From: Blasia pusilla
Taxonomy: Eukaryota
Direction: 5' to 3'
DNA: 64,000 bases
Assembly: GCA_050084515.1 (NCBI GenBank)
Contig: CM114271.1
Location: forward strand, 17,856,001-17,920,000
Shown here: positions 4,061 through 64,000 of the stretch, one piece after another
Layout of the letters: each line of letters begins with the position of its first letter
How positions within the stretch are numbered: position 1 is the first letter of the stretch
The notes under the pieces: model-generated
What the model was told of the DNA's origin: nothing
The model's input: the letters and a program-made list of their open reading frames with translations, nothing else
Databases searched by the model: none
Made by a program: the position numbers and the translations under genes

Positions 4061-4102
4061 GATGGAACGACTGAATCAAGCATGGCAATGGTACATGTGG
4101 GC

Positions 4103-4249
4103 TTGAGATGCATATTTTGTGGATCTATGAGGGATGTAGCAACCATGTTGGTATGTGATAATTGCTCTAGAGGGTGATATTCTTTGTGGTTGATTTCCCC
4201 TCTTGATATGGTTCCCACCGGAAGATGATTTTGTTCAAGTTATGTATAA
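4103..4249 (+). pseudogene. Degenerate PHD finger at the polyprotein C-terminus
   Basis: LRCIFCGSMRDVATMLVCDNCSRG*YSLWLISPLDMVPTGR*FCSSY fits the PHD pattern CxxC...MLxCDxCxxxWH...PL..VP.G.W.C, with both Trp codons mutated to TGA. It lies just before the PPT. Confidence 0.8.
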
Positions 4250-9600: not shown

Positions 9601-10258
9601 GTTTGATCTATCTAACTATAACCAGACCAAATTTGAGCTATGTTGTTGGCATAATGAGCCAGTTTATGCAAACACCTTGAAAACCTCACCTTGATGTTGT
9701 GAGAAGGATTATGCGGTATGTGAAATTATTTATTCAATTCGGGCTTCAATTTGAAATTTCTCCGAGTTTTCAATTACAAGGATTCACAAATGCTGATTGG
9801 GTAGGAAGCGTATATGATCGACACTTCACATCTGGTTATTCATTTACTTTGGGAAGCGTAGCTATAAGTTGAGCTTCAAAGAAGCAACCTACAATTTCTT
9901 TATCTTCAACAGAGGTTGAGTACAAAGGAGCAACCAATGCAGCATGTGAAGCGGTGTGGCTTCATCGATTACTTATTGAGATTGGTATTAGTAACTTAGG
10001 ACCTAGTGTAATATATGCAGACAATATTAGTAGCATCAAGCTTGATAATAATCTTGTGTTTCATGCTCGTAGAAAGCATGTTGAGGTGCACTATCATTTT
10101 ATCAGAGAGAAAGTGCTTGCAGGAGAAATTGATCTTGTGTGTATATGTACAGATCAGCAAATTGTTGACATCTTTACAAAGATATCTTTACCGGTGAAGT
10201 TTGAGATATTTATAAATGATTTAGGCGTTAGAGATATCGATATGAGCTTGAGGAGGAG

Positions 10259-10570
10259 TATTGAAGATTATGTTATAGTCAAGCTCATGAGACACCTGAA
10301 CTGCTACATTTGGTACTCACACGAAGTAGGGAAGCTTAATCTTGGTTAGTCAGTTAAACGCGATTATCTTAACTAGGATTAGTTAATCACAGTCAGTCTA
10401 ACTCAAGACTATGGTTAAGATTAGGGTTAGGGTTGCTAGTACATACCCTATATAATTGAGAAGCGGACCAGCCTTCACTCATTCTCTCATTGCAAATTTC
10501 GTTCTCCGTGGTGGTATCCGAGTGTGAGAGTCGTTTCCCACCAATTATGCTTCTTGAGCAATTTTCCACA
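10259..10570 (+). repeat. Copia 3' LTR
   Basis: Follows the PPT, ends ...ttccaca and is followed by the TSD tttcc. Confidence 0.95.
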
Positions 10571-20237: not shown

Positions 20238-22928
20238 ATGTCTTGGTATCCTAGTATTGCAAACACTGGATTTTGTGAGACTTTGAGATTGGTATAGCTC
20301 TACATCTCATACTATGTTGTTTCACCACCTCGTGAATTTCCACATAACTTCTATCAAGTCATGGATTCTGATGCGAATGTCATGAGATCCTTGTTATGTC
20401 CTTACCTTTGCAGATCGTCTGTAAGTATTCTCTGTAGTAATTCACTCTGTCTTCTTTATGTGTGTCTGCAGAGGAAAAGAATACTTGAAAGGCAACGTTT
20501 GCCAAGGTCCACACGGCCTCCAGTGTTGGAACCTGCCAGTGCAGAGTTTCTCTCTGCATTAGCTGCAGGCAGCAACTCTCGTCACATACTTCAAATTGGT
20601 TGTGGGTTGTCAACAATAGCTCTTGCTGCAGCTGCAAAGGCAACAGGCACGTGCCTCATTTCTGTTAATAGTGACAGATCTCAACAAGATATTGTACAGC
20701 GCCACATTAAGGAGCTTGAGTTGGAAGATTATGTTGAATTTCATTGTGAGGAGCCTCTCCACTTTGTTCCTACAAGGGAAAATGTGGATTTTGTCTTCCT
20801 CACAGGTGATGCAGGAGCCTACACTCAACTCTTCGACCTTCTGAAGCTCAAATCGGGAGCAATAGTGGTTGCTGATAATGCACTTTATGACTCCACCAAT
20901 GAGTACATAAAGCATGTCCGGAAACAGCCAGGGGTGGATTCTTCCACACTTTTTGTTGGGCGGGGCATCGAAATCACAAAAATAGTGTCTTGGGAGCAGT
21001 TTCGAGCAGGGTAAGAACCACTGCTATCATCTCTCATTGATCGGCTTTGAAGTTACGGATGGTCACTTCTGAGTTTATGCCAGATCAGGGCGACATGATT
21101 GCAGAGTTTCCATTGCCACTGTAACCTATCTTTGAACATACTTTGGGATTCCAGAAGACCTTGGGACTGGACTGACCATCCAGATGTGAGTGATTTGTAC
21201 TTACCCGGTTGCCAAAATTCTAAAAGTGTCATCCCACAGTTTTGAGTAGGACATTGTTTAGGAAATGTTTCTGAGATTTCCCATACTGTCAAAAGACAGA
21301 AGGATGAAGTACTGGCTGTGGGCAGATGGGCATTTGGTTGCCACATGGATACTGGCAGGAATTGTATGCAAACAGATTCTAGGCATTTTTCGATGTTTGT
21401 TGCTGTGGATCTTTAAGGTTTGGTTTGAGACTCTGATTAAAAGAGCTTGTAATAAGTTTTGGTGAAGGAAATCAAGAGACATGATGTGGCGAACCACTTG
21501 GAAAGCACATATGCATTGATCATGTGCTCTTGTCACAAAATAGGATTGTGTTTGTTCAACACACTGGATGGAGTCTCTACTGTTACTGAGACTTCTCAGG
21601 GAACTGGCCCTGATGAGTATTACACTGAGAACTGACTGTACGTTGCAGTGTCCTGTAGAATTCCAGCTTCACTTACAGTATTTTTTGAGACTTTCAATCA
21701 CATTGTCTGTATCGTTGGAAATCTGACAGGGGCCTTGAATTCATATTCGTTTTGTAGGAGGAAGAGGTATACTGGACAAATTGTCTCTAGCGATGGACGC
21801 GAGTCTCTTCTGGGATCTGATATACTGCAACAACCCTTACCCAATGCATCTTCTTCTAATGCTCATATTTATTCAAGTATTGACTCCAACAACTTGGGCC
21901 TCGCACATTCAAAGTCAGAGGCTGTGCTAGCCCACCGTAATGCCCAGGATAAAGAAGAAGCTGAGAGGACGAGTACAATTGCAACCCAGACTATGTTATC
22001 CACCCTAGCTGATTTACAGGGATCAAATCTCGCTGATCTTGTAATTCAAGCTACATCCCAAATAAGCCCAGAGGCAATCGCAGGGCTGGAGTCAGATGAG
22101 ACTGCTGTAGCAATTCCGATCCCCACATCCAATACTCTGACTAATGCTGTTATGACACCTCTAAAGGTTATTGACCATGGTCCAGTGCATGTGGAAAATC
22201 AAGTGGAACAAGCATCTACCTCAAGATCTGAGGTTAACCTTGTGAGTGTTGATACCCTTGCCTACCCTGAGTCCACTGCCCCCAGCCCTTTGAAAAGTAC
22301 ACCTCAAATTGTGTCATCCCAAAAGCCTTTGTCAACTGTGGTGGAGTCAAAGCCGTCTTTCCAGGTTCATTTTAAGAACGAGAATGGTCAAACCGAAATC
22401 ACAATTGAAGGAGAGGACCAAGACATGCTACTGACTGACATCACTTTGGCTTTCAGTGAAGCTGGTGTTAGGTCGGATCTATCACTTTTCCTCCGTTTTT
22501 ATGGTTATGAATTTAGTCCTAGAATTGTCTGTGCTCACACCTTTGAGTTGCAAAGAACATTTCACTCACAGATCCTCTTGTAGAGTAATTTTCTGAGTGT
22601 TGACAGTAAGTTATGTCTGATCTACATCTGGAAAGGATCGTGTGTTCTTATGGTTTGCAATTGTTCGAGTGATCCTTTGTTTTATGCATTATGCCAGTTG
22701 AAGTTTAAACAGAGCATAAGAATGAATTCATTTACACCTATTTTCCCTTTGACCCGGTGCAGTGTACGGAGAGCTAAGATTGCGACTCAGGATAAGTACA
22801 TAGAAGATATATTTTATGTCGTGGATGCTGAAACTCAAGCTCCCCTGAAAGCATCGCAACATGACGTTTTCCAAGAGAAGCTTGTGAAAAGAATTGCTGA
22901 TCGGAAGCGTTTGTCTTCTGATTCATAA
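20238..22928 (+). CDS. DUF1442-like (SAM-methyltransferase fold) protein with a low-complexity linker and C-terminal ACT domain; exons 20238-20291, 20472-21010, 21758-22471, 22763-22928
   Basis: All introns are GT-AG with consistent phases. The N-terminus MSWYPSIANTGFCETLRL and EPASAEFLSALAAGSNSRHI...STIALAAAAKATG fit plant DUF1442 proteins. The C-terminus TEITIEGEDQDMLLTDITLAFSEAGVSVRRAKIATQDKYIEDIFYVVD fits an ACR/GlnD-type ACT domain. Confidence 0.88.
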
Positions 22929-25292: not shown

Positions 25293-27782
25293 TAGGTTCT
25301 CATGAGAATGGCTTGTGACAAAACTTATTGTTGTAGGAGTAAGGTGAACTTTTCCGCATGGCTACTATCAAAACACAATCTACAAAGATACGAGGGCTCA
25401 ATTTTAAACTTCTCATGGCACAACCAGTTACTTCACAAGTGTCAAAGAGTGTCATGATTTTACTTTCACACAAGAATACAAAATTGTCGCTCCATATCAT
25501 TTGCTCTTTCTTCAAAAGCCATAATTAAGTTGGTTTGTATACGTAATTAAGATGTAGCTTTTTGTTATTTAGTAATTTTTTTGTGTTCAATCATTTCATT
25601 TAAATAATATTTAATGGAACGGTATTTTTTTGGTTTTTTCATCATAACTTTGAACACGGGGATTGTGGAGTGTGGCAATTGTGTGTTGGTCTGCGTGAGT
25701 GAGGAAGACAAAATTGCTCCACCTTGGAGACTGTGTTGGGTTGTGATTTTGAGGATGGAGGATTGAATATTTTAACAAAGTCAATAATCTTTGAGTGCTA
25801 GGTGGAGATGGAGAGCCTTTTATAACATCTGGTTGTTGATGGTTCTCAAGAGTTTCCTATTCATATAACTAGTAAGGTACCGTGAGAATGTTTGAAAATA
25901 AAAGAGTGTTTGAGGAGCTTTTGTTAGTGAAGAGATTAATGATGATGCACACAATTTTTTTTCTGATTGTCAATAACACGTGAAACCTTTTTTTCTTATC
26001 CAATTACCATATGTCGGTAGGGCCTTAAAAAAGCATGTCAATAATAGTTTTTTAAATTATGTTTAAATTTTCAAATTTAAGTATAATCTCCACTTTTTTA
26101 AATCTTAAAAGAGTTAGAAAATTTCACGTTTAAATAACACCCATCTCCCCTAAATAATTTCACTCCTCTATAAAAGCTCAAACAATAACTATTCTTCCCC
26201 TTCCATTTTTCCCACCAATATAACATTCACTAACCAAAATCTTAACTAATCTTAATTAACGAAATGATTTTCCTTTTCCATTCAAATTCATTTTACTTTC
26301 CCAAAATATGACATGTGAATCAATACAATGATCCAAATGATCATGCTATTTATTTCAAATTTTAAATATGATTTCTATTTTCTGAAATCTTAGAAGAGTA
26401 ATAACATTTCACTATATTTAGTAATTACAATCCTCCATTCAGATCCCAATACAATAAGTAATTTTATCTTTCCATAAAATTTAAACAAAATCTACTCCTC
26501 TATTAAATTTTTATTTCCTTTTTCCCATCAAATATGAATTGAGGTAAAAATTGTAAAAATTTGGTTATTTATCATATTAATTATATTTTATTAATATTTA
26601 TAATCACCCATTATAATATTAGTTTAATTACTAATTGATTAATATATATTCCATTCAAGTCCCTATTCGTTTCCTTTATTCTCTTTCTACCCATATAAGG
26701 GGGCTAAGGCGTCAAAATTCAAGAGTGTTGCCTATTTTGTCTTATTGTCTTGCTATCTTGTCGTATTATACATATGTGGTCGCCAATTATTATATAGATT
26801 AAGCTACGTGTGGTGATTATGAATGTACAATGTTTTGAGGTAGTCGCTCTGAGTTGACCATGCTGCGATGCCTAATGTCGCAACGCGCCACTATTTCCTC
26901 ATTGTGCTACTTGTGGTCGCGTCCCATTGTCTTACTTTCGGAATTGCACCAACTTTAAAGAGTTGAGAGTGTTCAACAGTGAGAGAGATGTTGCATCACA
27001 TTATCGAGTGTTGTGTCATTATATTTGGAATTGTACCATGCCATTGTTGTAGCATCCTACCCGTTGTGACTGCACCATAGAGGAAGAGTTAGTTATGTAA
27101 GCACCAATGAGTAAGACTTGCTAACCACAAGAGAGGTTTAGATATTCCAAATGGGTGTCAACTTGCAACTACTAAGAAGCAACGTCGACAATGAGTTTCG
27201 GGTTATATTGTTCCTTATCTTGTATTTATTAGAGGTTTTCGGATGTTGGGAATGTTGGGGTATCAATCCTCATAGGAAGGATTTCTTGTACCGTTGATGA
27301 TTCTTATCATTAGGATTAAAGAATACCCCAAAAGAGTCTCAAAGAATAATAGATAGGATATTAGCAAGTTTGGATTTTGCTTTATGTTATATTGATAACA
27401 ATGTAATCTTATGTGCCAAGGTTAAGGAGCATGAGTGACATCTTGTGGAGATGCTTTGATGATTGTTGTTACATGAGCTAAAATAACATCCAAGAAAGTG
27501 TAGGTTCGTATTTGAATAGATTAAGATGATGGAGGTTATACAATATAGCCAAGTTGATGTAGTATTTAGTAAACAAAGGTAGGGGCTATTTCACTCATTT
27601 CACGCCCGCCAAATGTAAATTGAGTTTATGCATTCATGGGGTTGGAATTTTTTTATCAATGGAATGCCAAGGGATTGAGTACAATTTTGAAGCCTCTTAC
27701 CTTGTTGAAAAAAGTGGACCATGAGTGACAATGGGGGAATGAGTAGGAGACAAGATTTCAACTACTCAATGACCGATGGACC

Positions 27783-28425
27783 TGTCACGTCTTTTAGGAT
27801 AGATTGGTGAGATCTAATAAAGCGCCTTCATGAGTAGTGGAGGACACGCCCAGTAGGTCGAGGGTGACCTGCTGAGGCCCTTGGAAACCTGAGATAGCAG
27901 GTTTCCCCCTCGTTTCACCTCATTTGGAGCCATATTGAGGAACTTACTATTTTAGGTAAGTACCATTTTGAGTATATGATCGAATTATTATTTTTGGTAA
28001 GTGGCCCTTGACCTTTCTACATCAGGTCAAGAGCCAAGGAGGTGACTTGGGAGAATAGGTTACCATGGAGAGAGCTTGGGAGAGGGGAGGGGTATACCTC
28101 AAGGAGAGAGAGCTTGAGAGCTCATTCTCTCTTTGTTGAACCTCTTGGCATGAGGCGGCGGAGCTATGGTACCTTGTCTTGTGAGTGTAACCCAAGCCTT
28201 TCATTAGGAGAGTGGGTTTGGTTTGACATGAGAGAGAGTGCATACCTTTGAGAGCTATGGTGTGAGATGGTGGAGAGAGAGATTAGATCTTACTTTAATT
28301 GGAGATATTTTGGTACTTCTTGTCTCGTTGTTTGGATGCCATGAGTTAGCATGGGATCATGCGTGTTTGTGTGTGTGTTCGGAGACAGCGATGTATGTTG
28401 TGTAGCGATGTGTATGCGCACGACA
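27783..28425 (+). repeat. Solo LTR (TGTCACG...CACGACA) inserted in the RT-RNase H linker of the older gypsy
   Basis: TG...CA ends. The host reading frame (DRxT|SPPILRRPIRG) resumes across it, with an imperfect duplication gacc/tacc. Homologous to 29260-29672, 46406-46670 and 51430-51937. Confidence 0.85.
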
Positions 28426-29259
28426 TACCTCTCCACCTATCTTGAGGAGACCAATTAGGGGATTTCCCTTCCAATTGCACATTAATATATTGGATCATGT
28501 TGAGATTTTAAGCAATGCTCATCCAATAGGAGGATGAGGATAAAGAGTTTGTAGTGCCTTACGCTAGCCATTTGAACAATGTTCTAGAGACAAAATGCAA
28601 CTCATATGAAGGAGAATACTTGGTTGCAATATGGGCCATCATGCATTTTAGGTGTTATTTGTTTGGTCAAAACTTTATTCTCATCACCAATCATCAACCA
28701 TTGAATAGGTTGATGGAATTTGAAAGCTTACGTGAAAGCTTGCCGTGTGGGCTTTCTTGTTGTACAAGTATAATTTCTGAGTGAAATAGCGATTGGGAGA
28801 CTCTACCAAGGTGGACAAGTTTGTGTCCGTAGATATGTTCATGTTAGTGGACTTACATCTGTCTTATAGAAGAACTTGTCCATGTGGCCATCTTCCCTTT
28901 CTTTCTCATCCCACCCACTTGCCTTCGTGATCCACAGTTTTTCATTTCTTCCTCCTTCCACCTTCACTCTCTTTCCACTTATTGCCCCGTCCATCCTTGC
29001 CTTGCCTTGCCTTCCACCATGAACTATAAGTGTGGACCTCATCTTTTGCAATCCATGTCTACATGTGAACATGTCTAAGCTTGTCCGTCTATGTCTGTTC
29101 TAGCTAAGGACTGACTTGTCCATTTTGGTGCAACCATGAATGTGGAGATGGGTTAAGTTCTAACCAATGCCCAAGTTAGTGGATACAATTAGAGCTTGTT
29201 GGGATGATGAGAGTGATGGAAAGATGGTGCATGGATGACATGACTTTGATTATTTGTAG

Positions 29260-29672
29260 AGAGCCATATTACACATACAAGGCAAGGATTATAGCTCTGC
29301 CGCCTCATGCCAAGAAGTTCAACAAAGAGAGAATGAGCTCTCAAACTCCCTCTCTTTGGGTATACCCCCTTCCCTCTCCCAAGCTCTCTCCACAGTAATT
29401 TATGTTCGTAGGTCATCTCGTTGGCTCTTGGCCTAATGTAAGAGGTTAAGGGTCACTTCCCAAAATGGAAAATCAACTATACTCAAAACAAAAACTTATT
29501 GGAAATAGTATGTTTTTCTATATGGTTCTAAATGAGCCGAAACGAAGGGGAAACCTGCACTCTCAAGTCACCAACGGCCTCAGCAAGTCATCCTGGACCA
29601 CGAGAGGTTATCCTCCAGTATCCTCAAAGGCGCTCTATCATATCTTGTCCATCTATCCTAAAACACGTGACA
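29260..29672 (-). repeat. Partial LTR of the TGTCACG family, inverted
   Basis: The reverse complement begins tgtcacgtgttttaggatagat and aligns with 27783-28190. Confidence 0.85.
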
Positions 29673-30744
29673 TACGTGATCAATTACATGTTGAGATGTC
29701 ATGAATGGATATGGTATTTTGTATTTATGTCTTTGTATTTTGTGATAATGATGTATGTTTTATAGCGATATGTATGTCACGACAAAGGAGATTAGAAATA
29801 TTTCGGTGACTACTCGCCCGCATGATTGAATGTTTTGTGTGTTCGATTAATGACATTGATGTATATTTTGTTACGTTATCTATACGCCGAATAATTATTA
29901 TGTCTTTTGTAGTAGAAGGGGGAATATCTATACGGCACTTTAGGCTAATAAGTCAAGCATAACCTTCTACGGAGTTGGATAATCATGAAGGAAGGTCTTC
30001 ACATTATATTAATTAGTTTACGATTCGTGCAATGCACAGGAGTGAAAGAACTAATGATGCTGCACACAAATTCAAAACATTTTTTCGCTCGACTCATGCA
30101 AATAAAAAAACACTCACCAATCATAATATAAATCATGTTTCTAAATATATGACTAGAGAAAAAATAAATTCCGGCCAAAAGGCGCGGTATGGGAGGACTT
30201 TTCTCCCGGCAGCAATGAAAAGGGACCCGCCAGCGGCCGGGAACCAACCGGGAGTCCGAACCGGCGAGCGGGAAAGTCGATCTGCTGGGTAGCGTTACTC
30301 GCAGCCCCGGATCTATCCGATACCGACCCATGGTTAAATTCCCCGAACCGTGGTTAGAACCGCGGGTTCGGTGACTGGGAAACCCTAGGAAGGAGGAAGG
30401 AGAACGAACGAACGAACGAGGGAAAGGAGCAGATCAGAGCAGAGGGAAAGGAGGAAAGGTCGACGAGAGGAGCAGGAGGTGTTCGCGTGGGAGAATCGGT
30501 GCGCCAGCGCTGTAGGTGTGGGTGTGGGTGTGGGTAAATTGGACTCGGGGGAGCAATCGAAGCGGACAGAGTGCAGGTGCAGGTGTGGGCTTTTCTGCGT
30601 CCGTATCGCCGGTCCAGATTTGTGGAAGTGCAGGAGGAGTGAGGGTTTTACTGTCGTTGCTGCTGCTTCTGGTGTTGTTGTTGTTGTCGTCGTCGTCGTA
30701 GGAAGTGGGAGTTGGAGGGGCTGTGGCTGGAAGGTTTGGTAGAG

Positions 30745-32118
30745 ATGTCGCTTGAGAATCCTCAGCACCCGACTCCTTTTCCAACCCCGACGTCGCCTAG
30801 GACGAAGCGTTCTCTTCCGAAAGCGGCGCCTGCGCCTCCATCTGCTCCATCAACGTCCTACCTGGCGACCAGCGAGACGTTAGCGCAGGCGGTAGAAATC
30901 CAGGAGCAAAAGCCAGAGGAAGCAATTGCTATTTTGAGGGGAATTCTTCATGATCCTACCTCCACTGCTGAAGCATTGCGTGTGAAAGAACAATCGATCG
31001 CGACGCTGTCGGACTTGCTGTCTCAGCAGAAGAAAGGTGAGGAGCTTCGTGGTCTGCTGACGGATCTCCGGCCCTTCTTCTCATTCATTCCGAAAGCAAA
31101 AACAGCGAAAATTGTCAGAGGGATCATCGATGCCGTGGCCAAAATCCCCGGTACGTCCGATCTTCAGATCTCTCTGTGCAGGGAAATGGTGGAGTGGACG
31201 AGGGCTGAGAAGAGGACGTTTTTGAGGCAGAGAGTAGAGGCACGGCTTGCGTCGCTGCTCATGGAGAGCAAGGAGTACTCGGAAGCCCTCTCTTTGTTGA
31301 CCAATTTAGTCAGAGAGGTGCGAAGGCTAGATGACAAATTGCTGCTGGTGGATATTGACCTGTTGGAAAGTAAGCTTCACTTTTCTCTGAGAAACCTACC
31401 AAAGGCTAAAGCAGCTCTTACGGCAGCTCGAACTGCTGCAAATGCCATTTACGTCCCACCGGCGCAGCAGGGAACGATCGACCTCCAGAGTGGAATACTT
31501 CACGCAGAGGAAAAGGATTACAAGACCGCTTTCAGCTACTTCTTTGAGGCCTTTGAAGCCTTCAATGCCTTGGACGACCCTCGTGCAGTTTTTAGTCTGA
31601 AGTACATGCTTCTTTGCAAGATTATGACTAATTCGGCCGAGGATGTCGGTGGACTCATTTCTTCCAAAGCTGGCTTGAAATATACTGGAGTGGAGCTTGA
31701 CGCCATGAAAGCTGTAGCAGAGGCCTATGGGAAGCGGTCTTTGAAAGATTTCGAGGAGGCTCTTCATACTTACAGAGAGCAATTAGAAGAGGATCCAATT
31801 GTGCACCGTCATCTGTCAGCTCTTTACGATACCCTTCTTGAGCAGAATTTATGTCGTCTTATCGAGCCATTTTCTCGGGTTGAGATCTCGCATATCTCAG
31901 AACTGATCGGACTTCCAATCGACGCCGTGGAGAAGAAGCTGTCTCAAATGATTTTGGACAAGAAATTTGCTGGAACTCTGGATCAAGGAGCAGGATGTCT
32001 TATCATATTTGACGATGTGAAGCCGGATGGAATTTATCCTGCAACCCTAGACACCATCAGTAACATCAGCAAGGTAGTGGATAGTTTGTACTTGAAATCA
32101 GCTAAAATCATGGCATAG
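30745..32118 (+). CDS. RPN6: 26S proteasome non-ATPase regulatory subunit RPN6/PSMD11 (PCI domain), single coding exon
   Basis: Intact ORF with hallmark segments IPKAKTAKIVR, EKRTFLRQR, DDKLLLVDIDLLESK, ARTAANAIY, DYKTAFSYFFEAFE, LLEQNLCRLIEPFS and KLSQMILDKKFAGTLDQG. First ATG at 30745. Confidence 0.97.
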   Translation: MSLENPQHPTPFPTPTSPRTKRSLPKAAPAPPSAPSTSYLATSETLAQAVEIQEQKPEEAIAILRGILHDPTSTAEALRVKEQSIATLSDLLSQQKKGEELRGLLTDLRPFFSFIPKAKTAKIVRGIIDAVAKIPGTSDLQISLCREMVEWTRAEKRTFLRQRVEARLASLLMESKEYSEALSLLTNLVREVRRLDDKLLLVDIDLLESKLHFSLRNLPKAKAALTAARTAANAIYVPPAQQGTIDLQSGILHAEEKDYKTAFSYFFEAFEAFNALDDPRAVFSLKYMLLCKIMTNSAEDVGGLISSKAGLKYTGVELDAMKAVAEAYGKRSLKDFEEALHTYREQLEEDPIVHRHLSALYDTLLEQNLCRLIEPFSRVEISHISELIGLPIDAVEKKLSQMILDKKFAGTLDQGAGCLIIFDDVKPDGIYPATLDTISNISKVVDSLYLKSAKIMA

Positions 32119-45400: not shown

Positions 45401-46400
45401 ATATCTAGTCCTCCACAAGGTTGAGGTAGTTCTAATAAGCATTTGTTATCCCCGTAGAGTTCATTAAAGGATAAATTTACACACAACACTTTATTTTATT
45501 TTATCTAGGATAGGTTGTAAAGTAGATGGACTAGTAGTATCTATGTTCCATCCAACTAAGGGTAAGTCTATGAGTGCACTAGGACTATAGAATCCTTTAT
45601 GGAAACCATTATACTTCTCTTTGCTATCAATACTTGAGTCTAAAATAGATAGCATTTGAAAATGGAGTGATTAGGCACTAAATTTTCATGGATATAAGAT
45701 GGTGTCATATAGGAATTATGGGAAGTGCAAAGCTCATTGTCACCATTTGTAATCCACGTAGAATTCACTAACGGATAAGTTTACTCACAAAACTTTTTGT
45801 ATTTTCTCTAGGATTGGGCATAGAGTAGATGGACTAGTAGTATCTATATTCCATCCAACTAGGAGTAAGTCTATGAGTGCAGTAATACTAACGAATCCTT
45901 TATGGAAACCATTATTCTTCACTATGCTACCAATGCGTGAGTCTATAATAGATAGCATTAGCAAATGGAATGGATTAGGCACAAAATTCTCACAGATATA
46001 AGATGATATCATATAAGAAGTATGGGAAGTGCGAAGCTCATTGTCACAATATAGACAAGAAGCGTTGAAGTGACCACTTCTGGGTGTAATATATGGGGCA
46101 AGAAAGCCATTACAAAGAGCATATGGCGGGTACTGAGGGGCAGTGATGGTACTCATTTGCACTCTTGGAGTTGAGTACATAATGCTACCACAATAGCCAT
46201 AACACTGCATATTAGTAATGAAGTAAGAACATAATGTGACCTATTTAGAAAGGATTTGATTGGCAGATATCCAACGGTAGGTTGTAGGTATGCATGGTAA
46301 TTTTTGTAGTATTGTGTGTCTTTGTTGGGGTTCCTACCTATAGTAAGCTACATGGATGTTCCCTACATGCAAATGTTCTTTGCCACCTTCCACTCATTTG
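42500..46400 (-). mobile_element. Decayed rolling-circle transposon Rep-PIF1 helicase (Helitron2/Helentron-like Rep motif)
   Basis: Minus-strand motifs: MPHFFLTLTFDE (about 44825-44860), ILGNVLDYVLRYELQG*GSLHCHIIFW (HUH, about 44580-44665), helicase SGIVATRL (about 43470-43495) and FPLTLGHAMTKHK (about 42535-42575). Many stops. Confidence 0.8.
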
Positions 46401-46405
46401 TCGTG

Positions 46406-49400
46406 TGTCACATCTTTTAGGATAGATCAGTGAGATCTAGTAGAGTGCCTTTGTGAGTAGTGGAGGACAAGCTCATTAGGTCGAGGATGACCTGTTGAGG
46501 TCCCAAGAAACCTGAGAGAGCAGCTTTCCCTTTCGTTTCACCTCATTTGGAGCCATATTGAGGAACTTACTATTTTAGGTAAGTACCATTTTGAGTATAT
46601 GATCGACTTTCTATCTTTGGTAAGTGGCCCTTGACCTCCTACATCGGGTCAAGAGCCAAGGATGTGACTTAACCCCAAGTAGGCAGGAGTGCTGCCATGA
46701 CCCCTTTGGACACCACCCCGATTGTGTGGTGCATCCGAGAGAAGGGTATTCGGGTGTTGGATCTCTTTGGAGGGATCAACATTGGGTTAGCTGCTATTTT
46801 GGAGGCTAGAATGCGCGTGCAGCAGTATCTGTATGTGGAAATTGATGATGTTGCAAGGCGCGCTTCACTTCACCATCTTTTTTCGCTGGTACGCCTCTGT
46901 TTTCCCAACTTCTTGTCTGCATCCGCCATTCAGGGTTACCAAAGTTCCCTACTTAGGGACATTTCATTGTTGGGGGTGCAGGACTTGGAGTTCCTCTGAC
47001 GCGTCACACTCTGGTGCAAACGTCTCGCTCCACGCGGTCTTCACACGCTCAGTGGCTAAGCATCGAAGCTCCTTAGTTGAGCCCCAAAGCGGCACCTCTT
47101 CTCCACGGACTAATGCGGCTACCATGACCTTCCTCTGCATAGAAATGTCAAGAATGGGAGTATCCTCTGCATGGACATGTCCCTCAATCAAATCATTAGG
47201 CCAAGTGATGACACTGCTAAATGCTGCTAAGGTTGCCATCTCTCTTGGCTGTCACTCTATCACTGCACCTGTGAATCAAACGGGTAATGAGCTAAGGCGC
47301 CCATCACCTGATTGCCATCCTGGTTTGTAGGAATCTAGGGAAAACCCCATCGGGTATAACACTACTCCACCAACCAAGACGTCGTAGGACTCTGCATTAG
47401 TCACTATCGCCTTGGCTCGCACCACAGACTCATCTGTAGGATATTTCGGGCGAATCCTCACCACGACCTCTTGTCGGGTGATATATTGTGTGGTACTCGC
47501 TCCATCCAAGGATGTCTGTATCCAGAATGGAAAACACTCCACATCGGCTCTCGTCAAGCCCAATCCTCCGAATGATGCTTTCCCCAACATTAGGGGTTGT
47601 GCTCCTGAATCCAACAAGATGCGTTGCGGACTAAAAGCTCTACCTCCGGGACTCACCAAGTGGAAGACCTCTCCCTGGTTATCTAGCAACACAACATCAT
47701 GAGAAGCCATGGCACGCTCTATCGCGGGTCTAGTGGGCATCTCCACCATCCTAGCAGCCGTAGCCTCCCATGAATCTGACGTGGACGGTCCAAGCATCCG
47801 TTCTAAGGGCAGGTCCATCACCTCCTCTGCAATCACCTCTAAACATGATGCAAGAACTCCAACTCCACGCTCACATAACGTAGGGGCCAACCCAAAAACC
47901 TCAGCGGACATACCTCCCAACGTCATAACATTGGAAGCAGAAAATAAAGGAGCGCGGTACACAATGGTGGCCGCCCCAACAACGTGCTCAATACATGCCC
48001 CTCTTGAGCATCAACAATAGGAGTCGTCGTACTCGCTTCTCCCATCGCCTTTTATGCCTACACACCAACAATATCACCAACTCTCAAAGAACTCTGATTA
48101 GGACCCATCGATGGAGTCCTCATCGCCTCGGACAACGCAAAAGACTGAGGAAGCCTAGTCTGTTTCCTGGCTTCCCCTCGTTGTGGATCCAACTCTGCGA
48201 CTGCTCCATGCGTCACAATTGCGGCGGCCTCCATCTGGGTAACCCCATACATCCAACCAAGATTCTCCATATCTCTGGCTGCTCCATATGATGTCGATGC
48301 CACGGATCCGGCATCGGGTAACCTCAATGCCATAGCGGCAATCTGCTCCTATAGCTGTTGTATCTGAGCAGCCATCCCAACCTCACGCCTGGCATCTCCC
48401 TCAACGCGTCTAGGTGGTGGGAATCGACCTTCTCCATAGGCAGCTCCACCATCCTATCGGGCAACTCCAGCTCTTCATCCCCCAACGGAACCACTTGGTG
48501 CACGATCTCTAGCCCCACCCGGACGGGCTACTTGCTCTTGTGCCCTATGTGGCCCTCGGTCCGGACATAACTCTGGATGTAAACTAAAACACCTGGCGCG
48601 TATGTGACCCTACCTCTGACAATAGTCACACTGATAACCTCTTGGCTCCGCCATGCTGAGGCACACGTCCATGACCTTGACGGGTGCAATCACGCTGATG
48701 ATGGGCTCCACGACATGACCAACAAGTAGTCGTAGGCGGCAGTTGCTGAGCCGCATATGAAGGCGCAGGTCTCTGTGGCACGGCCTCTCGGTATCCTCCC
48801 TGAGCTCTTGGTACCACAATCAACCTATCTCGGAGTCCACGTTGCTGCACTCGTGGTGCAGCCAATCGTGACTGCTCTCGCCCAGAACCCATGTTGGCTA
48901 CACTCTCCTCCGCCATGTTGCGCTCAATGTCCTCGGCGGTCCTAAAAACATCTCTCAACGTAGGGGAGGTGTTCATAAGAAGCACCCCCTCCCGCACCCG
49001 TGTCCGCACGGTCCGGTCCAACATCACGTACTAAGACTGGATAGCATGAGCCTCTGTAACCCTTGAGTGACGTTGAGCAACCAGCCCAAGTGAGTGTAAG
49101 CCTCATGCAAACTCTCACCCGAGCGCCTCTAGAAGTCATGGATGCTCCGCAACTCCTCCGTCCATACCCCCTGATAGCTCGCCTTCAACTCAGCGAAGAA
49201 CTCAACAACAGGGTTGAACCTGGGACAAACCCGACTAGATGGTGCAACTGCTCCAGTGCGAGTGACCCCTCCTAAAACATCACTAATGGAAGAGGAAGTA
49301 GAGTCTCCTGACTCCTCCTCCTCCTCATTTCGGAATGACTCCGTCCATGACACATCGTGTGGGTCATAGTAGAGTTGCCATGCCTCAATCTCTTGGGCAT

Positions 49401-51937
49401 ATATGTGGGAGGACTTATGGTAATCGTCCTTGGGCGCCCTCTTTAAATGCTCGAACATACCGTTCCATATTGTAAACAGATTGAACTCTCTAGAGTTCCT
49501 AGCCCACTATGAGTCACACCAACTCCTAAACTCCACAATGAAGTCGTGTAGTTCTATAGTGCCTACAGCACCCGAAAACCTACGCGGTCCTCTATCCCGG
49601 TAGTCCATCTCGTACGCCCAACTGGTAGGACCATTTAATGTGTATGGTGGATCACTAACACACTCCTCTACACGCTCCCCCTCGTTTGAAGACGACACAG
49701 AAGGAGATTGAGGTGGTCTCTCACGTGGAGACCCTCGAAACCTCCCACCACTCTACGTAAACCCTCCAAAGCTACTCTCAGATCCACTACCTTGCCTCTC
49801 AAAATCCCGAAAGGATGCCGTGATGGCCCTCGTGCCCCTCTCACATGATGACTCTCAATCTTACGAGTAATCCCTCAATCACTCAAACTAAACATGCGGC
49901 ACTCAAGCTACACTCTCTCACTGAAACGTGTGGTGTGCGGAAACAAGCAGCGTGGTGCGGCAAATCACTGATCTATCGTCTCATCGACAAACCATCCTCA
50001 ACTCTGGACATCCCACATAGGTCTATGTCCCCTAAACCCATACATCATCGATGCTCCTAGCATGAGCACAAAACCCAATATCCCAAATAACTTCCCAATA
50101 CTCGGAAATCCCTGACACGTGCAGGGTAAGAGACCAGAATGGGTAACATGACAATAATGTCGACGACGTTGCTCGGTAACTACAAATCCTGACCCCAACT
50201 CTGTCATGAAGACAACTCCTCCAATTGGCAAGTCATACTCCTCTCGTACTGACGCTGCTCAAACCTCCTCAATGTGCCGTGCAGTCCAGCAGTCCGGTGC
50301 GGCACTGGCGGCACGGAACAACTACAAACAACACAACACTCGGGGCATACCCTCCTCAATTAGAAATTCACACACTTTGCTCCTTAGTGGAGGAGCGGCT
50401 CTATGATCAAGACAGTGCGGTGCGGCCACGAGCGGCATGGCGGGACAATCGGCGGCGCATTGCGGCCACGGGCGTCACGACACGGTAGTCGATCGTCGTC
50501 GAGCGGCTACCAATCAACACATAACAGCATGAAATGAAAACTCAAACACCATAACTTGAGGTCATCTGCTATCATTGGTTGATGACAAAAGTGTGATGAC
50601 AGTGGCGGCCAAACCAAAGTACGTGGTGGCGGTGCAAGTTAGAGAATCAACGGTGGTCGTGGAAGACCCTCCACTCCATAATGGCGGCAATGGCAACCAA
50701 GGGTGGACAACGGCCGAACGCGGCTCTAAGCAGGGCTAGACGGCGGCGGACGGTGGACGATAGACCGTTGACGGTGATGGTGACGATTGACGGTTGATGG
50801 CGACGGTGAATCGTTGATGGTAACGGTTGACCATTGACGGTGACTATGACAACGACAACGCGACGAATGGTTTATTGTTTGAACAATTTAACCCTAAAAA
50901 TCGCCTAGCAATGGCATTTTTGCAAGATTGACCATAACTTTTTGCTTGAAACTCTAAATTGCACCCGTTTGTTGCACAGCGTGTATAACTTCACGATCTA
51001 CAATGGCGTCAAAAAATATTTGAAATTGGACATTTAAGTAAAAACTGAAGGGGATTGTCGTAAAGCTCAATGTTTCTTTCTCCTACATAAAATTTGGCAG
51101 CGCTTCCGCGTTGATTTCTCCCAACGAAAATGTAAAACATGTGAAAATACAAATCAGCAAGTTACATGGTGCTCCCCAGAGCACCAGCATGGGGCAACTT
51201 GCCCCCATACTCAATTCCTATCAAAATTTGGGCAGCGCTTCCCCGCGCCACTCTTCCACACGAAAAATTGGCAAAGGAAATATCACAAGTAAGCGGCTCT
51301 TGCTCCGGTTAGCACTCCCATGAACCGTTGAACAAGGAATACAATCCCCAACCTGCAAAACCAGCGAGTGACGAGTGAACTCCCCCATGAAGCTCTCTTA
51401 CTCACTCATTCTCTCTTTGTAAGATAAGATCCAATCTCTCTCACAACACCATAGTTCTCACATATGTACACTCTCACATGTTTCTCTCAATGTCAAACGA
51501 AACCCACTCTCCTAATGAGAGGCTTGGGTTACACACACAAGGCAAGCAAGACCATAGCTCCGCCGCCTGATGCCAAGAGGTTCAACAAAGAGAGAATGAG
51601 CTCTCAAGCTCTCTCTCCTTGAAGTATATCCCTCCCCTCTCCCAAGCTCTCTCCATGGTAACCTATGCTCCCAAGTCACCTCCTTGGCTCTTGACTTGTT
51701 GTAGGAGGTCAAGAGCCACTTACCAAAAATAAAAAGTCGATCAAATACTCAAAATGGTATTGACCTTAAATAGAAAATTCCTCAATATGGCTCCAAATGA
51801 GCCGAAACGAAGGGGAAACGTGCTCTCTCACGTTTCCCGAGGCCTCAACACGTCATCCTTGACCTACTGAGCCTGTCATCCACTACTCACGAAGACGCTC
51901 TACTAGATCTCACCGATCTATCCTAAAAGACGTGAGA
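46406..51937 (-). mobile_element. Rearranged Ty3/gypsy element: LTR, leader, gag and protease on minus, joined to an inverted DNMT fragment plus partial LTR
   Basis: LTR-family sequence at 51430-51937 (-) and 46406-46670 (+). Gag start RRFSGAVGTIELHDFIVEFRSWCD, zinc knuckle CWSCRGAHHQRDC and protease ILLDSGAQ...YDVLVGG. RT, RNase H and integrase are absent. Confidence 0.88.
46697..46999 (+). pseudogene. C5 DNA methyltransferase (DNMT3-like) N-terminal fragment, motifs I-III
   Basis: GIRVLDLFGGINIGLAAILEARMRVQQYLYVEIDDVARRA...RDISLLGVQDL contains SAM-binding motif I (FxGxG-type), motif II (E-I-D) and motif III (DI). It resembles the DNMT3 segment IRVLSLFDGIATG...YIASE and is truncated before the PC motif IV. 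Confidence 0.85.
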
Positions 51938-52169
51938 GTGCTCTACACCACAAATTGAGTCTGACTTTCTCTTCTATTGAGAATCAACGTGCATCTCCTT
52001 ACGATTTAAAGTTGAATATACACTATAAGCTCTGATGAAATCTGCAATCAATTGTGCTTCATCCAAACAACCATATTTATGATTCGGATACACATTGGTA
52101 TGACAGCAAGAGAAAGTATACACGAGGATTTCCAAAATGTGTGATCTCCTTATTGATCACTCATAGTCC

Positions 52170-59079: not shown

Positions 59080-62000
59080 GTTTTAGTGTTGGACTTGAAT
59101 GTTGTTTGTCCGACTTGCAATGCTCAACATTGGAAGTGTGAGAGAGTGAAGTATACTAGGTTTATAAGCTCGCCTTTTAGTATGTGTTGTGGGCATGGTA
59201 AGATTCAATTACCATATTTGTGACTTCACCTTTCTTTACTAGAGAATTACTTTATGGTATGAGTGCAAATAGTCTTCATTTTTTGCGTAATGCACGTGCC
59301 TATAATAGTGCTCTTCAATTGGCATCTACTGGGGCACATGTGACAGAGCAACGAGGCGGTACAGGAAACTTCAGGATTCAAGGTGGTGTATATCATTCTA
59401 TTGGACCTCTACATGCTGAAAGTGGTGCTCCTCCACAATTTGCGCAAATTTATATTCATGATGATGAGCATCAGATGGAACATAGAAGAAGGATTATGAC
59501 TGGAGATTATCGGGATCAATTGAGGCCAGAGATTTTAAGGGGATTACAAGATATGTTACATGCCCATAATCCATATGTGGCTTTATTTCGAAATGTGGCT
59601 ATTGATCCATGTAATTCTGACTTTCATATTGTTCTTAAGGGTAGTAAGCGAGGTCTGGATGCAAAACGATACACCTTGCCTGTTGCTTCAGAGATTGCAG
59701 CTATCTTGCTTGGAGATGGGAGTGAGCCAGTAGAAGGACGTGATATTATTGTTCGCTTACATGGAGGAGGGATTCGTCGTCTGTCAGACTTGAATGAAGC
59801 ATATATCCCATTGCACTTTGTTTTACCTTTTGTTTATGGTGCAGCAGGTTGACATCATGGGATACCTTTGCAAGGGCAACATGATCATAGAGATGATCCT
59901 CTGTTAAGAGGGTATGCTATGATGGATGAAGATAGAGATGATATTGTACAAGGAGAAATTCAAGGTGAGGTTACCACTCATGAGGCGAGTTCAAAGACGA
60001 TTATTGCTTTACAATTTGCTTCATTCAGACTTCAAATGCGAGCTAATGCTATGGATAATAATCGGTTGTTGAGGTTTGGTCGTCTTACTCAAGAATATAT
60101 GGTGGATATGTATGCGACTATTGAAATGCAACGACTAACTTGGATACGATTGCATCAAAAAGAGTTGAGAGCTGATTTATACCAAGGAGTCAGAGATGCC
60201 ATGACTCGGCATGATGTGAACGGTCAAGGCATAGGGAGACGTATTATCTTACCTTCGTCTTTCATAGGAGGACCCCGTCACATGCATCAATTGTACCATG
60301 ATGCTATGGCCATTGTGAGACATTTTGGGAAGCCTGACTACTTTTTGACAATGACTTGCAATCCTAAATGGCCAGAGATTACCTCTGCTCTGCTGCATGG
60401 TCAATCAACGTCCGATCGGCCTGACTTGGTTGTACGTGTTTTCCAACAAAAGAAGAAGGAGTTGTTGAGACTTATATTGGATAAGCATATTTTGGGTCGA
60501 GTGGTAGGATGCATCATGTGGTCGAGTTCCAAAAGAGAGGGCTACCACATGTGCATATCCTAATTATTCTTGCTTTTGAGGATAAGCCAAGGACAACCTC
60601 TGATTATGACGATATTATATCTGCTGAGATTCCGAATCCCATGACTCATCCTAGGCTACATTCTACTGTAAGAAATTGTATGATTCATGGTCCGTGTGGA
60701 GTAGCACATCCAACTGCACCTTGCACGGATAAAACGACAAAAAAATGTTCCAAAGGATACCCAATGCCGTTTGCAACAATGACAATGGAGAATGAGGATG
60801 GATATCCTATTTATAAGAGGTAATTCATTGGTTTTGTTTATTTCGTCATTTGATGTTCTTCTATTAGTGTGCTATCTTTTTTCCCAACTATTAACATACT
60901 TCTATATGTGTTTATGCAGGCGTGATAATGGCAAATTGATAAATAAGTCAAATCATGACTTTGATATTTGTTGGGTGGTTCCATACAATCCAATGTTATG
61001 TACTTTATTTGATTGTCATATCAATTTGGAGATAACAGATAGCATCTTGGCAATAAAGTAATTTTATAAGTATGTGTACAAAGGATCTGATGCCATATCA
61101 TATACCTTGGCAAATACTACATCAGGAGAGGATACTATTGATGAGACATCATTATATCTTGATGCAAGGTATTTTGATTCCTCCTATCTTTCAAGATCTC
61201 CCAATTTTTCCTAGGATATTAAATGGGAGTCTAACAATATTTATATTGTATGGTATGAAGGTACGTTTCTTCTTCAGAAGCATGTTGGCGAATCTTCAAG
61301 TTTAGTCTACATGCAGAGCAACCAAGTATTGTGAGATTGATTGTTCATCTTCCAGACAGTCAAATGGTATATTTTCATGGGCAAGATTCATTGGGTAATA
61401 TTCTGGAGCGAAGTAAGGAAACCACTCTTACTCAATGGTTTGCAACAAATGTTTCTGATTCGACTGCGCGACAATATCTTTATTTGGAGTTCCCTTCTCA
61501 TTACTCTTGGAATAAGAAGCAATGGCATCTGCGTAAACGTGCGCGAAAAGGATGTGGACATCCTATTGGACGTCTGTATATGACAAATCCAGGTAAACTT
61601 TCGATACTTGTTAAGATACAATTATTTAGGAAAAAATTGAGTTAATGTTAAAATCATATTCATGCTTCCTCCCTAATACTTTTTTTTTTCGCTAATCCTA
61701 GCTGAAGGGGAGCGTCATTGGTTACGATTACTTCTCCATCATGTGAGAGGAGCTCAATCATATCAAGATTTGAGAACCATCGATGGTGTAGTTTATCCTA
61801 CCTTCAAAGATACCGCTATTCAGATGGGACTTTTGGAGGACGATAGAGAGATCTTTTCTTGCTTTGAAGAGACGGTTGTCATTCGTACTGGCTATTCATT
61901 ACGTTTACTCTTTGCCATTTGTCTTCTATATAATACACCTTCCCTTCCGGCTATGGTGTGGGAACATTTTTTGGTTCCATTGACAGAAGATCTTCTACAT

Positions 62001-64000
62001 CAAAGGCGTGAGGTAATATGCATGGCTTTTGTTGAGTCAATTTTTTTCTTATTTCTCTTACGAATATTTTAGGTACTTTATTTACGTTTTAACTTCTATA
62101 TTTGTTGCTTGTAATAGAGAATTGGTATTCCGACCCTTCCATTGGATGTTCATATTATTAATCTTGCGTTATTGGAGGTCCATTACCATCTTCAAGATCA
62201 TGGTAAAAGTATGGCGGACTTCCCTGACATGCCTCAACCAAATATCCAAACTCGTGATTTATCTATTTCGCGTCTAGAAGAAGAAGAGCTCTCCTACGAT
62301 CATGATATTCTTTGTGAACGTGTGAGAGTAGGAGAGATGTCTTTAAATGATGGACAACGCGCGATTTGGGAAGTTGTTTGTAATGCTTTTCGCGATATCT
62401 TATAGGATGCGCCACCTTCTGTAAGTGGATATTATATATAGTATATTTTATTATTAATTTCTTAAACTTTTTATTTATTTAAGTTTTCTTTTAAAGTGCT
62501 TTTCTGTGACGAAAAATATGGATTTTTCAGGCAAAACTTTTCTTTATCGATGGTCCTGGCGGAATAGGAAATTTTTTTTTGTACAACCTTCTTCTTGCAA
62601 TGGTACGGAGCGAGGGTCATATAGCTCTTGCAGTTGCATCTTCGGGGATTGCCGCTTTATTATTGGATGGAGGTCGTACTGCTCATTCTCGATTCAAGAT
62701 TCCTATCCAAGTACATGAAAGTTCCACTTGCAAGTAAGTCTAGATTTAAGATTTATTTTCCTTTTATGGCATGCATATTATTGTTTTATTTTTTGATTAT
62801 CCTTCATAAATGTTCCTCATATATTGTTTGTTATTGATTTTCCAGCCTATCGGTCAATAGTCATATGGCCCGCCTTATACAAAAGGCGAAGTTGATCGTG
62901 TGGGATGAAGCTCCTATGACGAATCACGCATTTGAGGTCGTTAATCGTACTTTCCAAGATATCATGGGTTTGATGGATCTCGATTACGAGATTTGCCTTT
63001 TGGGGAAAATCATTTTATTTGGTGGTGACTTCCGACAACTTCTTCCATTGTTTAAATCGGAGATCGTGCCGCTGATTGTGCGTGCAACACTTAGAGATCT
63101 CCTATTTGGTTTGACGTGAGATTATTGAAACTCACTACCAACATGAGAGTCAATACTATACAAGGTATTAAAGAATAAACCTAATATTTCACCTTTTTCA
63201 TTTCATGTGGTTTTTGTTTATTTTTAATATTTACTAATTTCTTCATTTTATATTTATTATCAGGATATGCACGAGAAGAGCAAGAAACCTTTGCAAAGTG
63301 GTTATTAGAGGTAGGAGAGGGTCGTGTACCGTTACATTTGGACCTTGGAGAGGATTTTATACAAGTTCCGGATGCGATAATTGTTAAAACCACAAGGATC
63401 AATGATTTCATTGACATTGTTTATGGACACGATGTTCATAAGTGGAGTGATATTGATTTCTTGAGGGGTACATCCATTTTGTCAACTAAGAATACTACTG
63501 TGGATATTATAAACGGAGAAATCATGTCTCGATTTCCAGGAGAGGTAATATTCATATTCTTGAATATCATTATTCTATTTTGATTGTTCTACTGCTACAT
63601 TTTTCTATGATCTCTCTTATTTTAATGATTTATTTTGTTTTTGCAGGAGCATACCTTCTTGAGTGCTGATTTTGTTTCCGACGATGAGATGAGACTTGTT
63701 TATCCAACAGAATTTCTGAATACATGTTTACCATCTGGATTGCCACCTCATTGTTTGACTTTGAAGATTGGAGCTCCGATAATGCTATTACGGAATATGA
63801 ATGGAGCAAAGGGACAAGCAAACGGGACTCGGCTGGTGATAGCTGGCTTTAGTCGACATCTTATAGATACAACAATTATCACGGGAAAAAACATTGGAGC
63901 TCGAGTTTTCATTCCACGCATTCCATTGATTGCTTATGATTCCGGCCTACCTTTTGATTTACGACGATTTCAATTTCCTATCCGTCCTGCTTTTGCAATG
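59080..64000 (+). pseudogene. Helitron Rep/PIF1 helicase, intron-containing, disrupted
   Basis: Motifs RNARAYNSALQLAS, PPQFAQIYIHD, ILPSSFIGGPRHM, GKPDYFLTMTCNPKWPEI, VEFQKRGLPHVH, MIHGPCG, VVPYNP, IVWDEAPM, GGDFRQLLP and QFPIRPAFAM. AT-rich GT-AG introns; premature stops (e.g. TGA 59850-59852) and frameshifts. Confidence 0.95.

Follow-up and report, generated by a model that had tools for sequence, protein, structure and literature searches.

Probable remains of a Gypsy-DNMT3-kind retrotransposon, with part of a DNMT3-like cytosine methyltransferase, in the liverwort Blasia pusilla

We analysed a 64,000-nucleotide stretch of the Blasia pusilla genome (GenBank assembly GCA_050084515.1, contig CM114271.1, positions 17,856,001 to 17,920,000; hereafter the window, in whose own numbering all positions are given), in which an initial annotation had proposed a Gypsy retrotransposon family carrying its own DNMT3-like cytosine methyltransferase next to the protease. 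The locus concerned, copy 1, spans 46406-51938 and is read mainly from the minus strand. On that strand it begins with a 5' terminal repeat of about 514 bp, termed repeat A (51425-51938), which gives a 523-bp match at 86% to 27782-28292. An untranslated leader (49594-51424, minus strand) with no protein match and no second copy in the window connects repeat A to gag (48100-49593, minus strand). The gag region was recognized by tblastn with residues 9-490 of the Marchantia protein P0018 and contains a CCHC zinc knuckle (CWSCRGAHHQRDC, in the open reading frame (ORF) at 48626-49030). The gag matches, 49593-49057, 49084-48656 and 48657-48100, are broken by frame changes and, together with a protease match at 47971-47012, make up four pieces in alternating frames. 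The aspartic protease region (47276-48010, minus strand; …RILLDSGAQPLMLGK…) is a 244-aa open stretch showing 47% identity to residues 3-236 of the database protein P0014. Pfam returned no protease match for the copy-1 protease ORF and nothing relevant for the five copy-1 ORFs searched; in related proteins the Pfam match to the protease is weak (PF13650). A linker (47000-47251, minus strand; …WPNDLIEGHVHAEDTP…AWSETFAPE) matches P0014 residues 237-318 by tblastn and contains two in-frame stops, near 47258-47225. The minus-strand frame (...TAWSETFAPECDAS, last residues …AWSETFAPECDAS) ends at about 47000, directly against a plus-strand methyltransferase ORF. This abutment had been described in the initial annotation and is borne out, with the two pieces lying on opposite strands. 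Beyond the methyltransferase piece (46671-46999, plus strand, in inverse orientation to the remainder of copy 1) lies a partial repeat A comprising its first 265 bp (46406-46670, plus strand; blastn 87-89% to 51935-51673 on the minus strand and 27783-28048 on the plus strand), which begins TGTCAC and has the orientation opposite to the repeat A copy at 51938-51425.

The methyltransferase ORF, 46673-46999, runs from stop to stop over 108 codons, with an ATG at 46697 opening a 101-codon ATG-initiated frame (46697-46999). Its translation contains ...IRVLDLFGGINIGL...YLYVEIDD...DISLLG..., with further pieces reading ...IRVLDLFGGINIGLAAILEARMRVQQYLYVEIDD...DISLLGVQDLEFL*, where the asterisk is the stop. 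The segment LDLFGGINIGL aligns with LSLFDGIATGL of DNMT3A as the S-adenosylmethionine (AdoMet)-binding loop of motif I (FxGxG), and YLYVEID aligns with YIASE of DNMT3A at the acidic residue of motif II. Comparison with longer database proteins yielded 17 matches (E 1.3e-26 to 3.2e-5, 37-59% identity), eight of which carry the C5-methyltransferase domain PF00145. A retroelement protease stands directly before PF00145 in the proteins whose N-terminus is 51-59% identical to the ORF. The match to P0014 has 51% identity (residues 332-428). Among the solved-structure matches listed, 22 of 26 are DNMT3A or DNMT3B. The piece ends at ...LGVQDLE, just short of motif IV (PCQ). Judged from these alignments, motifs I-III, which the initial annotation had read in the ORF, are real homology and not chance.

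The nature of the parent protein became clear from its relatives. The methyltransferase (DNMT) region of P0014 is related to 39 long proteins of 1,275-3,282 aa, of which three are from Marchantia polymorpha and one, P0045, is from the alga Klebsormidium nitens (E 2.8e-52; 62% of the region covered at 47% identity). Relatives that form a single chain proceed from a protease (LLDSGAQPLMLGK) through a linker (…LLEGN…D.P…AW…F…) to a methyltransferase of the form …LSPLDTTPI.W.YP.EGI.LLDLFGGISTGLAAVLQ…YVE.DE.ARR…DLVIAGWPCQG…YILENV…SRAHRPRLWWTN…; proteins from Sphagnum and Calypogeia likewise contain protease, linker and DNMT in one chain. The PF00145 profile recognized P0014 at 46.1 bits (cut-off 22) and was above the cut-off in four of the five relatives scanned (27.7-46.1 bits); ORF1 of the metagenome locus L049 scored 51.1 bits. 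Against solved structures P0014 matched DNMT3A best (3.6e-11), together with DNMT3C and DNMT3B, the alignment covering motifs I-VIII at P0014 residues 349-534. The next matches were tobacco DRM (1.2e-6), M.HaeIII (4.5e-5), DRM2 (4e-3) and M.HhaI (0.012), and no DNMT1 was among the matches at E<=1. The plant enzymes NtDRM and DRM2 are C5 methyltransferases of the DNMT3 lineage, but their motifs are rearranged, while the element DNMT keeps the order I-IV-VI-VIII-IX-X, as in DNMT3. 'DNMT3-like' is a putative label resting on this structure ranking together with the published tree.

That cellular DNMT3 enzymes are the best solved relatives, and that the DNMT piece lies on the opposite strand from the protease, would also suit a remnant of a DNMT3 or DRM gene of the host, or host sequence captured once beside an unrelated retroelement. 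We regard such an origin as highly improbable, given that the junction of protease, linker and DNMT is colinear in a second window copy (copy 2, below), in the Sphagnum, Calypogeia and Marchantia proteins and in 16/16 examined metagenome loci, and that the ORF is 51-59% identical to element proteins versus roughly 40% (by eye, over 45 aligned residues) to DNMT3A. With a probability of about 0.9, 46671-46999 is a piece of a DNMT3-type C5-methyltransferase domain, namely its AdoMet-binding N-terminal third with motifs I-III, from a Gypsy-DNMT3-kind retrotransposon of the Ty3/Gypsy order in a marchantiopsid liverwort genome.

Several observations weigh against this assignment. The evidence for complete elements comes from database proteins and metagenome loci, that is, from genomes other than that of the window. 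The ORF alone matched no Pfam family at E<=1, PF00145 included, because the fragment is too short for the profile; the profile check suggested in the initial annotation was therefore negative for the window ORF and positive for the relatives. The best solved structure for the ORF itself, DNMT3A, had a non-significant E of 0.24. The direct match to K. nitens P0045 (E 0.003 over 32 residues) is weak, so the Klebsormidium link of the ORF runs via intermediates, from P0014 to P0045. The family also departs from cellular DNMT3A, DNMT3B and DNMT3C. The E value is just 3.6e-11, motif IV is PCQ as against PCN in DNMT3A, no ADD or PWWP domain was found in the family DNMTs, and these sit in a retroelement polyprotein. 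In the one published assay of this type of enzyme, the Klebsormidium DNMT domain expressed in yeast gave no methylation, a result its authors call inconclusive (PMC5890265, section 10). Finally, unique coverage of the window is about 0.4x, and neither 46670/46671 nor the position near 47000 is bridged by any of the reads or contigs listed.

The two halves of copy 1 fit together closely. About 12.7 codons separate the aligned minus-strand and plus-strand pieces, compared with 13 residues in P0014, and the inversion breakpoint can be placed only within 46991-47008. Because the plus-strand piece resumes at the P0014 residue where the minus-strand piece stops, the 329-bp DNMT piece looks flipped in place. 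In a tree, the protease and DNMT pieces of copy 1 fall into the same seven-row clade with a Calypogeia protein (SH-aLRT 95), apart from the Marchantia polymorpha/Sphagnum clade, which fits a single element. On this reading copy 1 is a rearranged element in which gag, protease and linker on the minus strand are broken by frameshifts and stops, the 329-bp DNMT piece is inverted in place and capped by the inverted 265-bp terminal-repeat piece, and everything from motif IV on, plus reverse transcriptase, RNase H and integrase, is lost. The claim in the initial annotation that the methyltransferase is part of the polyprotein stands for the relatives (P0037, L049 and 16/16 loci) and for copy 2; it does not describe copy 1, where the piece is inverted and not colinear. 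Three other views of the locus were discarded. Copy 1 (46406-51938) as one insertion with a target duplication does not agree with its flanks, CGTG and GTGC, which have no 4-bp duplication. Splicing of repeat A to the DNMT in a subgenomic RNA finds no GT at the A breakpoint, where full A copies read GTGACTT|GGGAG. The 265-bp A piece is not a complete long terminal repeat (LTR) ending at an integration junction, since A measures at least 511-523 bp and a solo unit consists of A plus B over 644 bp.

The inverted layout could instead be an error of assembly in a highly repeated family, the true locus being colinear or two separate loci. The family is multi-copy; at 51519-51715 repeat A is covered to about 236 per strand class, the unique flank to about 0.4. 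Many other copies contribute reads over the copy-1 stretch, and the listed reads and contigs leave both junctions unbridged. Set against this, no joint or loose end among those listed falls at 46670/46671 or near 47000, and the start residue of the plus-strand piece equals the stop residue of the minus-strand piece. One clade holds both pieces, as would be expected of a single element flipped in place more than of two copies collapsed by chance, and similar inverted pieces occur at 29269-29784 in the window and in the metagenome locus L066. We therefore consider an assembly error unlikely and retain an in-place inversion of the DNMT piece. The L066 relative is truncated after the reverse transcriptase and then carries an inverted 468-bp gag fragment at 92.5% identity (9652-10119 / 13717-14184), another case of an inverted internal piece in the Gypsy-DNMT3 family.

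Full relatives have the order gag-protease-DNMT-reverse transcriptase-RNase H-integrase, in some followed by a PHD finger. In P0037, Pfam placed zf-CCHC at 517, protease at 784-876, PF00145 at 966-1208, RVT_1 at 1412-1566, RNase H at 1629-1757 and integrase at 1885-2051; K. nitens P0045 has DNMT, reverse transcriptase, RNase H and integrase in the same succession by Pfam. The metagenome contig L049 is apparently an intact element by its coding content. Its ORF1 (1,369 aa) contains protease (708-757) and DNMT (940-1086), and its ORF2 (1,047 aa) contains reverse transcriptase, RNase H, Integrase_H2C2, rve and a PHD finger (PF00628) at 990-1034. A lone in-frame stop (L049:5083-5085) parts ORF1 (gag-protease-DNMT) from ORF2 (reverse transcriptase-RNase H-integrase-PHD), which suggests stop-codon read-through for pol expression in this element; other relatives such as P0037 are fused without a stop between the DNMT and reverse transcriptase parts. 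The relatives possess the PCQ (GWPCQG), ENV (ILENV) and RxR-type motifs that the initial annotation had proposed to seek between protease and reverse transcriptase. Its Gypsy assignment is likewise supported by RVT_1, RT_RNaseH, Integrase_H2C2 and rve (a DDE integrase), which occur in that order in P0037, P0045 and L049 ORF2. Chromoviruses, which are also Gypsy elements, carry a chromodomain at the C-terminal end of the integrase; the present family resembles them in having a chromatin-reader module at this end but differs in that the module is a PHD finger (PF00628). The database protein P0042 shows a different arrangement by Pfam (reverse transcriptase-RNase H-DNA_methylase-integrase-PHD, with the DNMT between RNase H and integrase); either the architecture varies within the family or the gene model is chimeric.

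The ends of the elements are unlike plain LTRs. Three loci, L030 (6957-16160), L079 (1676-10805) and L016 (1768-10971), show A1 (about 340 bp), the internal region with a polypurine tract, B1 (113-117 bp), A2 and B2 in succession. Repeat A starts with TGTCA and repeat B ends with CGACA, and perfect 4-bp target duplications (CATA, AAGG and TCTC) flank A1-start and B2-end in 3/3 loci. A palindrome, ACAGCTGT, lies within the B1|A2 junction of these relatives, and this junction looks like a circle junction. No terminal repeats were found in L049, the contig of which probably lacks the element ends. In the window, all four A copies begin at the identical base with unrelated flanks. One of them belongs to a 644-bp solo A-B unit (about 27778-28425; A 27782-28292, B motif 28390-28425) that splits an older, decayed plus-strand fragment (27256-28798) into reverse transcriptase (27256-27776) and RNase H (28421-28798). 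The interruption falls at one residue, with L049 ORF2 residue 363 aligning on both sides, and the flanks GACC and TACC agree at 3/4 bases. Another copy, at 29269-29784, has A on the minus strand (29672-29269) followed directly by B on the plus strand (29689-29784), making it a second inverted A piece besides 46406-46670. In a DNA run of the organism, most reads that extend past the start of A contain the B motif, indicating that B precedes A in most copies.

Split direct repeats are a property of PAT/Ngaro-type elements, which use a tyrosine recombinase, and the A1...B1-A2-B2 layout of L030, L079 and L016 resembles theirs. The element might on this ground be classed as tyrosine-recombinase (DIRS/PAT/Ngaro-type) and not as Gypsy, which would account for terminal repeats unlike plain LTRs and would go along with the two inverted repeat-A pairs within the window. 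The legend of Fig. 4c in PMC5890265 also gives the Klebsormidium element a DIRS repeat structure, combined with Gypsy domains. The enzymes speak otherwise. L049 ORF2 and P0037 carry Integrase_H2C2 and rve in the order reverse transcriptase-RNase H-integrase, Pfam found no tyrosine recombinase in either, and the perfect 4-bp target duplications at A1-start and B2-end in 3/3 loci are those a DDE integrase would make. A tyrosine-recombinase class is accordingly hardly credible, and we retain the Gypsy assignment, with split repeats and 4-bp duplications as its particular ends.

A second copy in the window retains the original order. In copy 2 (plus strand), protease and linker occupy 2835-3827 with many stops (tblastn; protease 2841-3512, linker to 3827), and the DNMT N-terminus with motifs I-II follows colinearly at 3872-4060, aligning to P0014 residues 330-392; the colinearity claimed in the initial annotation is thus confirmed, with the protease-linker-DNMT order kept on the plus strand in spite of the stops and one frame change. 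The DNMT piece is 39% identical to the copy-1 ORF (E 5.6e-13). A PHD finger remnant (4058-4240, plus strand) is 39% identical to residues 973-1031 of L049 ORF2 (E 5e-8), and an internal deletion has joined DNMT motif II directly to the PHD finger at the integrase end. The observed/expected CpG ratio is 0.30 for copy 2 (2835-4240) and 0.70 for gag-protease of copy 1; copy 2 is older than copy 1 and CpG-depleted. Motif IV (PCQ) and everything downstream, including motif VI (ENV), are absent from both copies, copy 2 stopping after motif II, in agreement with the earlier remark that the catalytic PC motif is missing from both. Reverse transcriptase, RNase H and integrase domains are absent from the two DNMT-bearing copies, and reverse transcriptase-RNase H sequence occurs in the window in separate fragments. 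Besides the split fragment described above, there is a decayed one of the same superfamily at 579-1577 (plus strand; tblastn to L049 ORF2 residues 6-484 and P0037 residues 1407-1763). A suspected DNMT C-terminus at 630-969 proved to be the N-terminal part of the reverse transcriptase. Copies 1 and 2 are dead, neither being able to make the enzyme, and the window locus is a fossil with no function of its own.

The domain is well preserved elsewhere. The motif I Gly, the PCQ triplet including its Cys and the ENV Glu reach at least 90% conservation across 14 sequences ranging from Klebsormidium to bryophytes. Comparing the DNMT of L049 with that of L048 gives a ratio of non-synonymous to synonymous substitutions (dN/dS) of 0.18 over 440 codons, at a dS of 1.2 that is near saturation. 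The DNMT domain of the relatives is under purifying selection. Using a 9-sequence alignment we fetched 80 metagenome loci and examined the 16 with the longest flanks; DNMT is followed by reverse transcriptase on the same strand in all 16, and the integrase was reached in 13 of them. An ORF of at least 600 aa was present in only 3/80 loci, so most copies there have also decayed. The domain forms 275 clusters at 50% identity (E<=1e-30), with many proteins of 1,200-3,456 aa, and each of the best 150 representatives is either of element type or a short fragment.

Sequencing runs of the organism were used to gauge abundance and transcription. A sampled whole-genome run covered the DNMT piece (46791-46987) to a depth of about 7, compared with about 0.4 for the unique flank. 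Repeat A reached about 470 in part, and 51322-51715 (and 46397-46790) about 236 per strand class, compared with 2-8 in the coding parts. Independent runs of the organism show the family to be present in many copies, with full elements far outnumbered by repeat A or its solo units. An RNA run contained 90 reads with 95-99% likeness, mostly on repeat A and 47185-47578; some fell on the protease region, in the orientation that sense RNA would have in the usual stranded library. Coming from family members at least 95% alike, these reads are not assignable to copy 1.

These data bear on whether copy 1 might retain a role, either through the ATG-initiated ORF 46697-46999 kept as a small expressed protein, such as an AdoMet-binding or dominant-negative fragment, or through the repeat pair 46406-46670 / 51935-51673, whose hairpin RNA would silence the family. 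Maize Mu killer provides a model of the latter, a hairpin RNA that silences a transposon family. The ORF is indeed open while its neighbours are broken, the A arms, 5 kb from each other, share 87% complementarity, and RNA reads of both orientations occur on repeat A. The end of the ORF, however, is the rearrangement breakpoint with unrelated residues, the RNA run has no read on 46791-46987, and the reads on A stem from many copies and are not assignable to copy 1. Either role appears very unlikely, and a decayed fossil remains our reading of copy 1.

The closest known system is KnitGypsy-Dnmt3 of Klebsormidium nitens, a Gypsy-order polyprotein with a Dnmt3-related, non-rearranged DNMT upstream of the reverse transcriptase (de Mendoza et al., 2018, PMC5890265). 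The elements share the placement of the DNMT inside a Gypsy-order polyprotein upstream of the reverse transcriptase (P0045 match 2.8e-52), terminal repeats that in both seem unusual and not LTR-like, and purifying selection on the DNMT, with a Ka/Ks below 0.2 reported there (PMC5890265) and 0.18 in the relatives here. The presence of a K. nitens protein among the full relatives identifies the family as the published Gypsy-DNMT3 kind. The hosts differ, an alga there and a land plant, a liverwort, here. The bryophyte clade is separate from the K. nitens clade in our tree (whole-protein alignment, quick search, midpoint rooting). L049 further has the stop between gag-protease-DNMT and reverse transcriptase-RNase H-integrase and a PHD finger after the integrase; the word PHD is absent from the main text of PMC5890265. 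In its account, acquisition is treated as independent and specific to the K. nitens lineage. The same paper describes SymbioDIRS-Dnmt3 and SymbioLINE-Dnmt, which resemble the present family as retrotransposons carrying a C5 DNMT; by their description they are set apart as other classes, with tyrosine recombinase or LINE machinery, and as independent acquisitions according to the authors. SymbioDIRS-Dnmt3 of Symbiodinium performed de novo CG methylation in yeast (PMC5890265). Retrotransposon DNMT3 'in streptophytes' receives one sentence each in PMC12344493 and the preprint 10.64898/2026.05.21.726589, both citing the 2018 paper. A full-text literature search found no description of Gypsy-DNMT3 elements in liverworts, mosses or other land plants, with the proviso that the supplements of PMC5890265 and PMC12344493 may list bryophyte members. 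The kind of element is therefore already known, being the same as KnitGypsy-Dnmt3, and what is new is its reach into land plants. Further details added here are the stop between the two ORFs, the PHD finger and the split repeats with their 4-bp duplications.

The window contains several features outside this family. An uninterrupted 491-codon frame at 30643-32115 (plus strand) encodes a complete RPN6/PSMD11 proteasome lid subunit (RPN6_N, PCI and RPN6_C_helix), with 96% identity to Marchantia paleacea and at most 89% to mosses and Calypogeia, values that place the window in a marchantiopsid liverwort. The frame belongs either to an intronless gene or to a retrocopy. Copia-type polyprotein fragments lie at 8138-10346 (plus strand; RVT_2 93 bits for 8822-9226), and a Helitron occupies 59202-64000 (plus strand), with Helitron_like_N at 166 bits at 59853-60560 and helicase-like ORFs from there to the window end. 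An ORF at 20298-21011 (plus strand) with similarity to DUF1442 and O-methyltransferases (Methyltransf_3, Methyltransf_24) is probably a host-gene exon.

As for the intact members, ORF1 would supply gag, protease and DNMT, and ORF2, after one stop or by fusion, reverse transcriptase, RNase H, DDE integrase and PHD finger. The methyltransferase activity of the family DNMT is putative; the leading idea is that in living members it would methylate the element's own cDNA or its insertion site de novo, and the PHD finger may read chromatin. More broadly, and at somewhat below even odds, we suggest that Gypsy-DNMT3 is no oddity of the Klebsormidium lineage but an ancient lineage of streptophytes, coding-competent to this day, which either came into liverworts and mosses or was retained there and which combines a DNMT3-like writer in ORF1 with a PHD reader at the integrase. 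Its DDE integrase would insert a circularly permuted 'A...B-A-B' DNA, for which the palindromic B|A junction would serve as substrate.

Few retrotransposons encode the very enzyme by which they are normally silenced. Marchantia, Calypogeia and Sphagnum proteins, an apparently intact metagenome element and a DNMT under purifying selection show that the Klebsormidium type is found in liverworts and mosses as well, and that the origin or spread of the family extends beyond one alga. The family now comes within reach of genetic model bryophytes, which, if the above is true, would offer a tractable system for asking why a retroelement methylates DNA.

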